Position numbers and translations under genes: made by a program. A stretch of 41,458 nt of DNA, taken from UHGV virus genome UHGV-0205600. One strand, given 5' to 3'. Numbering within the stretch: the stretch's first letter is position 1; each line of letters opens with the position of its first letter. The stretch is from a virus. Positions 24,117-25,583 of the stretch are shown in pieces. The notes under the pieces were generated by a model. That model did no database searches. It worked only from the letters and a program-made list of their open reading frames with translations, and had not been told where the DNA came from.

Positions 24117-25583
24117 CTATGCGCCTGGATTGGGTTCGATCATACTCAGCGTTTTTGCTATTTTCTTAATCTCATCATCATTATCCAAAAAAGAGGCGTC
24201 TTTTATTACCACAGTACGCTCTTCTTGTAATAGCTCACCTATTTTTTCTTCTATAAAATCTAAGGTTGGCATTATAATCTGGATGTCTCGAGAAAAAGTA
24301 GTTTTTGCATCTTCTATGCTGTTGAATCCATTATGTATATGAGTGAATATTCTCTTTTTAAACTGTATGTCTTCTGGATTTCCCACTAACTGACTGAAAT
24401 CTCCTTTCATAACTCTTTCGCTTGTTTCAAAGAGCTGTATTGCTATCGAGTCGATTAATTCCTTTTTGGACAGAGATGCTTGTTCATAAAATTTGGTGAC
24501 TAACTCTGTTGGCAACTTTCTTGAGACGACTTTAATGGACAGTCTCTGAAATAGGTAAGGTGCCACCACGCCCACACTGAAAGGGTGAATCCTCCCTGGA
24601 TTTAATAATTTTATTGTGACGTTTTCAAAAACTAGCTCATTGATTTTACTATTTATGAATTCCATTAAATACTTATCTAATGATAATGTTACCGACGCAA
24701 CCGCTTCTATCACTTGTTTAAATGGCTCGCCTTTCAAGGATTTAAAAAACTCTTTGTTATAACCAAAGAAATCCACAAAACCTAAATTTATTCGATTTTC
24801 TTCTTTAGTATTTGAAATGCGAATTTGAAGTTGTTTTAAGTCTTCATCGGTCAAGTATTTTAAACCATAGTCATCAAGCGCGTTACGTATAACTTTATCT
24901 GCAGATTCTAAGTCGATTACAGTTTTTACATTAAAAAACAATGATAACAATGAATCATACTTATGAACTCGCAAGGTTAAATCTGTTGCATTTGATGCGG
25001 TTACATTTATCCGTCTCAAAAGATCAATAACTTTACTAATTGGTAGGCTGTTTTCAAAAATTTTGAATGACTCGTATTCAGATACAACATCTTTTATATA
25101 CTTACTGATAGTATCAGACTTTATTTCCACCTCAACTTCGGTTGAGTAAGAATGAATTAGTGAGTTTGTAGTTTCAGCGATGTCATTTGATACATACAAC
25201 TTATATTCGAAACAATCAGGAGCGGGAAGCAAACTATTATCAATAATGGAAAACAATAAAAATTTAATTATTTCTCTTAATGCTTGCGGTCTAGTTATTC
25301 TACCTTGCATTTTTTTACATTGTATTAAACCACTTACAACACCGTTATGGTATAGCACGCAGTCGCGTCCTCTTTCAGAAACTCCTTGCATTAAAGATAT
25401 TGAGGATATATTTTTATGCTTTCCATCTTCAATTTCGTTCTTTACTAACAAATAACATAGCAACTCAAATTCTCGATCACCTAATTCTGAAAAGGGAAGC
25501 AATCCGATACCAGAATCTATAGTCCATGGTCTATATCCTGATTGAGCCTCGATATTAATTTGTTCGTCACTGATTTTTTTCAC
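24117..25583 (-). CDS. hypothetical 488-aa protein, AT-rich, with possible N-terminal PD-(D/E)xK-like nuclease motif
   Basis: Long single ORF in markedly AT-rich DNA between attP and the tail-fibre genes; N-terminal E...D...QxK arrangement (EFELL...RGRDCVLY...LIQCKK); rest is Lys/Glu/Ile-rich. Confidence 0.7.
   Translation of the reverse strand: MKKISDEQINIEAQSGYRPWTIDSGIGLLPFSELGDREFELLCYLLVKNEIEDGKHKNISSISLMQGVSERGRDCVLYHNGVVSGLIQCKKMQGRITRPQALREIIKFLLFSIIDNSLLPAPDCFEYKLYVSNDIAETTNSLIHSYSTEVEVEIKSDTISKYIKDVVSEYESFKIFENSLPISKVIDLLRRINVTASNATDLTLRVHKYDSLLSLFFNVKTVIDLESADKVIRNALDDYGLKYLTDEDLKQLQIRISNTKEENRINLGFVDFFGYNKEFFKSLKGEPFKQVIEAVASVTLSLDKYLMEFINSKINELVFENVTIKLLNPGRIHPFSVGVVAPYLFQRLSIKVVSRKLPTELVTKFYEQASLSKKELIDSIAIQLFETSERVMKGDFSQLVGNPEDIQFKKRIFTHIHNGFNSIEDAKTTFSRDIQIIMPTLDFIEEKIGELLQEERTVVIKDASFLDNDDEIKKIAKTLSMIEPNPGA

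Follow-up and report, generated by a model that had tools for sequence, protein, structure and literature searches.

The N-terminal PD-(D/E)xK effectors of the immune receptors Avs7 and Avs3 are activated by sensor-driven tetramerization (PMC12803255), and the LmuA nuclease of the Lamassu systems is likewise activated through tetramerization (10.1101/2025.03.14.643221). At the P2 hotspots, the effector carried by STAND proteins alternates between TIR, SIR2 and Mrr_cat (supplement of PMC9122126). Among the single-gene systems, the PD-(D/E)xK defense proteins that were identified by DefensePredictor and validated in E. coli consist of a nuclease and idiosyncratic domains and are often prophage-borne (PMC13092281); a domain-centric discovery paper excluded single-gene systems. 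Here, a gene of the virus genome UHGV-0205600 is compared with these systems. The analyzed stretch (41,458 nucleotides, hereafter ‘the window') is a complete temperate phage, SfV/SfI/phi458-like, and a first-pass annotation, made from the sequence alone, had singled out in it an AT-rich gene for a protein of 488 amino acids (aa) next to the phage attachment site (attP). On balance, this protein is probably a stand-alone, prophage-carried, trigger-activated immune DNase. Solitary PD-(D/E)xK defense proteins are already known; what is new is the combination of a STAND-type head with a small domain that is free of a nucleoside triphosphatase (NTPase) and has no detectable structural relative.

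The gene and its predicted nuclease core

The open reading frame (ORF) occupies positions 24117..25583 on the minus strand, with a GTG start codon and a TAG stop codon in the ORF list of the window. It is a genuine gene, not a chance reading frame, because it has more than 120 full-length homologs (about 485 aa, aligned end to end with the 488-aa protein, with E-values down to 0), and 707 cluster representatives were retrieved at E≤1e-3 by an exhaustive profile search against 1.84 billion cluster representatives. The protein consists of two modules, with the following features.

24909..25583, minus strand, N-module (residues 1-225), a Mrr-like core with a helical/small-sheet extension, delineated from profile search, alignment and the Pfam matches of relatives
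25179..25493, minus strand, predicted PD-(D/E)xK / Mrr-like catalytic core (residues 31-135)
25464-25466, 25362-25364 and 25314-25322, minus strand, putative catalytic residues E40, D74 and Q88-C89-K90, respectively
24120..24908, minus strand, C-module (residues 226-488), acidic, mostly helical and family-specific, the proposed regulatory, sensor or oligomerization part

The core contains the strings EFELL (residues 38-42), RGRDCVLY (71-78) and LIQCKK (86-91). In an alignment of 40 homologs (32-85% identity), E40, D74, Q88 and K90 are invariant in all 40 sequences, so that the motif is not a chance pattern, and the same four residues are invariant in 11 STAND-type relatives. The invariant positions of this alignment include D36 R37 F39 E40, R71 G72 R73 D74 C75 and Q88 C89 K90, and no other part of the protein is conserved as well as the motif region. 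The D...QxK variant is a signature of the Mrr family.

The AlphaFold2 model of the protein (mean predicted local distance difference test score, pLDDT, 85) contains a restriction-endonuclease-like alpha/beta core. Its secondary structure (helix 36-52, strands 75-79 and 82-90) fits the arrangement with the glutamate on the first helix, the acidic residue on the second strand and (E/Q)xK on the third. Structural comparison places MspJI, AspBHI, the Mrr-like AF1548 and the Type ISP enzyme LlaBIII among the best matches, at 8-14% sequence identity to the solved restriction nuclease domains. At the sequence level, 20 of the 40 relatives match the Pfam family Mrr_cat (PF04471) at E≤0.1, with the best E-value of 5.7e-6, and two relatives of the module, P0162 (22.0 bits) and P0230 (23.1 bits), exceed the 21-bit cut-off of this family. 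Single-sequence searches of the 488-aa protein against Pfam, NCBIfam, PHROGs and the Protein Data Bank (PDB) returned nothing usable; marginal matches to 2CompART, WYL and ‘monooxygenase 3mcs' were taken as noise. Profile searches with the whole family, the N-module and the C-module against the PDB sequences detected no real relative, and a Foldseek search of viral predicted structures gave no match at E≤1e-3 and weak ‘restriction endonuclease' matches to the N-domain. The nuclease fold is thus supported by sequence profiles, structure modeling and conservation.

The first-pass annotation holds up well on these points. The ORF that it described is present, on the minus strand, and is AT-rich (GC content 0.335; 0.29 at third codon positions); the Lys/Glu/Ile-rich composition that it reported is roughly right (I 10.2%, K 8.4% and E 8.4%, joined by L at 10.7%); and the E...D...QxK motif in which it saw a likeness to restriction-endonuclease-fold nucleases is the one found invariant here. 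The check it proposed, a comparison of profiles and structures, yielded support for the nuclease fold, in the profiles of the relatives and in the AlphaFold2 model. Its overall interpretation is supported in part.

The N-module in other proteins

The best 150 of the 707 representatives of clusters at 50% identity were sorted into architecture classes. The two-module architecture of about 485 aa accounts for 54 of these, plus 2 with a C-terminal extension; 45 are proteins of 686-1608 aa that match residues about 1-235 alone, 15 are of intermediate size and carry the N-module in front of a different tail, and 34 are fragments. In the 60 larger or different proteins, the homology (E-values of 1e-40 to 1e-66) stops at about residue 225-240, which is the boundary between the modules. 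What follows the N-module in the sampled larger and mid-size proteins is either NACHT/NB-ARC/nSTAND with TPR, or HD-CE with a GHKL ATPase (HATPase_c_3), or pentapeptide repeats. The module is found at the N-terminus of STAND NTPase/TPR proteins of 690-1600 aa as well as of GHKL-ATPase and pentapeptide-repeat proteins. The aligned relatives share the signatures P-[FY]..L.DR.FE, LMQG.GERGRDC, G[LI]IQCK, EIIKF and FF.V. Because the N-module recurs with the same signatures in front of STAND, GHKL and pentapeptide parts, it is a portable effector head that NLR-like proteins share with other conflict proteins. Its location at the N-terminus is the effector position of Avs-like immune receptors.

Some of the fusions are of separate interest. 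The proteins P0235, P0218 and P0188, in which the N-module is fused to HD-CE and a GHKL ATPase (MORC-like) or to pentapeptide tails, were matched to no named defense system.

The C-module

The C-module opens with the motif DDYGLKxLTDEDLKxLQxRI...RINLGFVDFFGY (residues about 236-275), which ranks second in conservation within the protein. It has a net charge of -6 and a regional isoelectric point of 5.0-5.8. A pattern scan of the module detected neither a Walker A motif nor a membrane segment; no relative was found in Pfam, in the profile search of the PDB sequences or among the viral predicted structures; and no SRA, winged-helix or other DNA-reader fold was recognized in it.

Distribution and genomic contexts

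The gene is rare in E. coli, being present in 30 of the 5426 complete genomes, always at 99.5% identity or more, and no homolog of the protein was detected by tblastn in 50,697 deposited phage genomes. In E. coli, a block that consists of this gene and an adjacent ORF for a 139-aa protein is 99.3-99.7% identical and lies at the same prophage end, in prophages with Mu-like tail and baseplate genes. These prophages adjoin the CP4-6/pao region, which we take to be the thrW region, and lack the acyltransferase gene that accompanies the block in the window.

More distant homologs are located in diverse mobile elements: in Enterobacter, in a P2-like prophage remnant, flanked by OLD/AAA_15-type genes; in Pseudomonas, in a P2-like prophage, at its accessory end; in Stutzerimonas and Burkholderia, in small integrase islands; in Acinetobacter, beside a PAAR cluster; and in a conjugative element of the Bacteroidota type, at a distance of 4 kb from Gabija-like genes. 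The Bacteroidota copies are 52-54% identical. In the eight homolog contexts that were compared, the gene is solitary, with no conserved neighbor and no methylase partner. The patchy occurrence, the low GC content and the Bacteroidota copies suggest a spread resembling horizontal gene transfer.

Inactivation of the gene is common. Five of the 30 copies in complete E. coli genomes (H50, H74, H76, H77 and H78) are broken by an IS5 or IS1 insertion or split by a frameshift, and the cluster at 90% identity (P0001) includes many shortened alleles, of 337, 397 and 439 aa, the first of which occurs on 28 contigs.

Relationship to known defense systems

The protein shares with Avs3, Avs4, Avs7 and the unnamed NACHT/NB-ARC-TPR proteins the N-terminal nuclease effector of the Mrr/Cap4 type. 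It differs from these in what comes next: the 263 residues that follow the effector form a helical C-module, with neither a STAND NTPase (no Pfam match and no Walker A motif) nor a TPR-like repeat sensor. The solved Avs proteins are undetectable by sequence.

The likeness to LmuA of Lamassu lies in the union of a nuclease with a controlling helical domain. The PADLOC model of LmuA matches the protein at E 0.0036 over residues 36-181 alone (positions 20-167 of the 336 in the model), the C-module is unrelated to the C-terminal domain of LmuA, and the solved LmuA chains (304-372 aa) are shorter than the protein by about 130-180 aa. No LmuB or LmuC gene is present in the island of the window that holds the gene or in the eight homolog contexts. 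The CBASS effector Cap4 combines DUF4297 with SAVED, whereas the 488-aa protein has neither a SAVED domain nor a cyclase operon: the Pfam models of SAVED and DUF4297 match none of the 40 aligned members, and the contexts contain no CD-NTase neighbor. Compared with the Mrr, Type IV and Type IIS nucleases (PF04471; AF1548, MspJI, AspBHI, LlaBIII, FokI), the nuclease is N-terminal here and no specificity domain is recognized.

The protein belongs to none of the Avs, LmuA, Cap4 or Type IV families; it lacks, respectively, the NTPase and repeats, the SMC partners and C-terminal domain, the SAVED domain and the reader domains. With the DS systems of DefensePredictor it shares the general kind, a solitary nuclease with an extra domain. 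Neither its accession nor its signature motifs appear in the part of the supplementary tables of the DefensePredictor study that was available (PMC13092281), so that, to judge by these tables, it is apparently none of those systems, and the supplements of the P2-hotspot study (PMC9122126) contain neither the protein nor the motifs. The accession occurs in no searchable literature.

Proposed mechanism and alternatives

The analysis documents the fold with its catalytic motif, the boundary and the fusion partners of the N-module, and a gene that is solitary, located on mobile elements and frequently inactivated. An anti-phage role of the protein, its nuclease activity, the trigger, autoinhibition and activation by oligomerization can be proposed by analogy with the systems described above. 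In the lysogen, the gene would be expressed from a promoter of its own, and the product would be held inactive, directly or indirectly, by the C-module, the compact acidic helical domain (residues 226-488) that would take the place of the NTPase and the repeat sensor. Upon infection by another phage, the C-module would sense a phage-derived cue and drive or release self-association, so that at least two nuclease modules would combine to form a competent active site. Cleavage of DNA would then stop the infection, probably at the expense of the cell; abortive infection is the likely outcome because there is no protecting methylase. The frequent inactivation of the gene is what would be expected of a costly, toxin-like gene. 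A more specific version, in which the protein is a ‘mini-Avs' and the C-module a minimal NTPase-independent domain for pattern recognition and oligomerization that binds a phage protein or a DNA structure, is a tentative suggestion, drawn from the comparison with Avs, and is more doubtful than the general proposal. If true, the innate immune sensors would gain a new, compact single-chain class, whose fold has no solved relative.

Several observations weigh against an immune DNase that is switched on by the C-module. The 488-aa query itself has no Pfam match above threshold, Mrr_cat included. No named defense family in PADLOC 2.0 matches it, in agreement with the first-pass annotation, which had recognized no named family, and the best partial matches are at E about 0.004 (LmuA; WYL of Cas-associated proteins). 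The STAND relatives of the N-module are not the canonical Avs1-5 of PADLOC, so their own immune role is partly presumed. The C-module has no recognizable sensor or oligomerization fold, and its placement relative to the N-module is uncertain (predicted template modeling score 0.48; pLDDT of the C-module alone, 74.6). A dedicated profile search for the C-module joined to a different effector returned fragments of the same family only, and hence the idea of a portable sensor draws no support from domain shuffling; because no protein pairs the C-module with another effector, the sensor assignment is one by analogy. Finally, the frequent breakage may reflect a fitness cost or may be plain prophage decay.

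A Type IV modification-dependent restriction endonuclease is an unlikely reading of the same data: the C-module would read modified phage DNA (hydroxymethylcytosine, glucosyl-hydroxymethylcytosine or methylated bases), the Mrr-like module would cut it and the host would survive. Such an enzyme would explain the presence of MspJI, AspBHI, AF1548 and LlaBIII among the best structural matches, the Mrr-type D...QxK and the solitary gene without a methylase in the eight contexts, and prophage-borne Type IV enzymes, such as McrA of e14, are known. The organization of the protein argues in the opposite direction, given that the C-module is acidic (net charge -6) and shows no SRA, winged-helix or other reader fold, that the nearest sequence relatives of the nuclease module are the effector heads of STAND and GHKL proteins rather than Type IV enzymes, and that in the known Mrr and MspJI enzymes the reader comes first and the catalytic domain follows it, opposite to the order seen here. 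A slightly lower probability attaches to a nuclease of the conflict or addiction type that works for the mobile element rather than for host immunity, as a stabilizing toxin or as a weapon against plasmids and other elements, with its regulator encoded elsewhere. Consistent location on mobile elements fits this possibility, as do the frequent disruption, which suggests a cost, and the Acinetobacter copy that adjoins a PAAR gene cluster. However, none of the homolog contexts contains a conserved neighbor of the size of an antitoxin or immunity gene, the 139-aa neighbor is a secreted protein that occurs independently and far more widely, and the nuclease has neither a secretion signal nor a toxin-delivery domain.

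The remaining two alternatives appear improbable. That the protein is an orphan effector of a multigene system, Lamassu (LmuA-like) or ABC-3C, with SMC-like partners elsewhere in the host, is hard to reconcile with the lack of LmuB and LmuC genes and of the LmuA C-terminal domain, and is very improbable. Least credible of all is an accessory function in the phage life cycle or in lysogenic conversion, either as a helper of the O-antigen acyltransferase or as a recombination or homing nuclease. The gene does occupy the serotype-conversion slot of SfV-type phages and adjoins an Acyl_transf_3 gene, and identification as a known serotype-conversion accessory protein was one of the outcomes that the first-pass annotation had named as refuting its view. 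This possibility is largely contradicted by the E. coli prophages that carry the block without the acyltransferase and by the distant relatives in unrelated elements that also lack it; moreover, a gene with no homolog in 50,697 deposited phages is not a conserved phage function.

If the prediction of a prophage-carried, trigger-activated immune DNase holds, an unnamed family, with at least 54 clusters at 50% identity in Gamma- and Betaproteobacteria and Bacteroidota, would join the prophage-borne defenses, and the effector module of STAND receptors would be seen to work also with an NTPase-free partner of 260 residues. By its very small size, the protein would then lend itself to studies of how such nucleases stay off and switch on. 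The slot between attP and the tail-fiber genes of SfV-like phages may, in that case, hold a putative defense gene, either in place of O-antigen modification genes or next to them, which would make this cargo slot relevant to how lysogens of Shigella and E. coli resist phages.

The cargo island and the host phage

The gene is part of a low-GC island between the attachment site and the tail-fiber genes, with the following features of the region.

22500-23663, plus strand, integrase (Pfam)
23678..23723, minus strand, attP core of 46 nt, resembling a tRNA 3'-end; identified from the sequence, with attP annotated at the matching place in the SfI and SfII records
23760..28040, no strand, low-GC cargo island with three unrelated accessory genes, namely the 488-aa gene, the gene for the 139-aa signal-peptide protein and the Acyl_transf_3 O-acyltransferase gene
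25584..25898, minus strand, AT-rich intergenic region of 315 nt, 5' of the 488-aa gene, presumably its own promoter region
25590..25594, minus strand, Shine-Dalgarno sequence AGGAG, read from the sequence, 6 nt 5' of the GTG
28042-28452, tail-fiber assembly gene (Pfam)
28437-29453, Gly-rich fiber gene (Pfam)

The attP core is presumably of the thrW type (the 3' part of tRNA-Thr), as in the attP of SfV, SfII and P22-type phages. A scan of the island for promoters and terminators found nothing above chance. DNA homology to SfI, SfII, SfIV and SfV ends right after int/attP, and because of this the island can be regarded as a replaced cargo slot. This is essentially what the first-pass annotation had proposed in likening the segment to the lambda b region, and its supporting statements are borne out: the GC content of 23760-28040 is 0.359, compared with 0.495 elsewhere in the window, and the segment indeed lies between the attP core, which ends at 23723, and the tail-fiber assembly gene, which starts at 28042. 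As a separate observation, the GC content of the 488-aa gene contrasts with a genome of about 0.5.

In the E. coli ECONIH4 prophage (L002, 9156-9929), which carries the same nuclease block, a LEM-3-like GIY-YIG protein and the pinE invertase take up the rest of the slot, and the acyltransferase is missing. The slot is therefore a mosaic site for cargo, in which nuclease-type genes are exchanged.

The 139-aa protein (25899-26318, minus strand; the listed ORF reaches 26420 from an upstream TTG) carries a clear signal peptide (MKYCYLIILSLTISSAQA|E) and could be assigned to no family. Its exact sequence occurs on at least 1000 contigs across Enterobacteriaceae, far more commonly than the nuclease gene, and none of the deposited phages gave a match. 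It is a secreted moron in its own right. Its candidacy as a partner or immunity gene of the nuclease was rejected, given its absence beside the distant homologs and its far wider spread.

The third cargo gene (26974-27999, plus strand; GC content 0.31) encodes a 341-aa membrane acyltransferase of the Acyl_transf_3 family (Pfam E-value 5.3e-28; PHROG O-acetyltransferase, 8.7e-41) and sits where the SfV-type phages have the gtr serotype-conversion cassette. Its nearest homolog in a deposited phage, that of TL-2011b, is only 28% identical, and the enzyme is likely to be a novel O-antigen acetylase.

Outside the island, three more loci of the phage deserve mention. A 348-aa ORF (16120-17166, plus strand) lies directly downstream of the S24/HTH repressor gene of the cI type (15360-16094), in the slot of lambda rexAB; neither Pfam nor PADLOC yields a match for it, and it is possibly a second prophage-expressed exclusion gene. 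A 246-aa trypsin-like peptidase (7678-8418, minus strand; Trypsin_2, E-value 1.4e-20), encoded in a stretch of lower GC content (about 0.44), resembles the protease effector parts of the PADLOC models RT-Protease_XI (2e-13) and Avs1b (7e-6) and is unusual as an accessory gene in a phage of this type. At 10535-10690, on the minus strand, there are adjoining phage-borne tRNA genes, tRNA-Thr(TGT) and tRNA-Asn(GTT).
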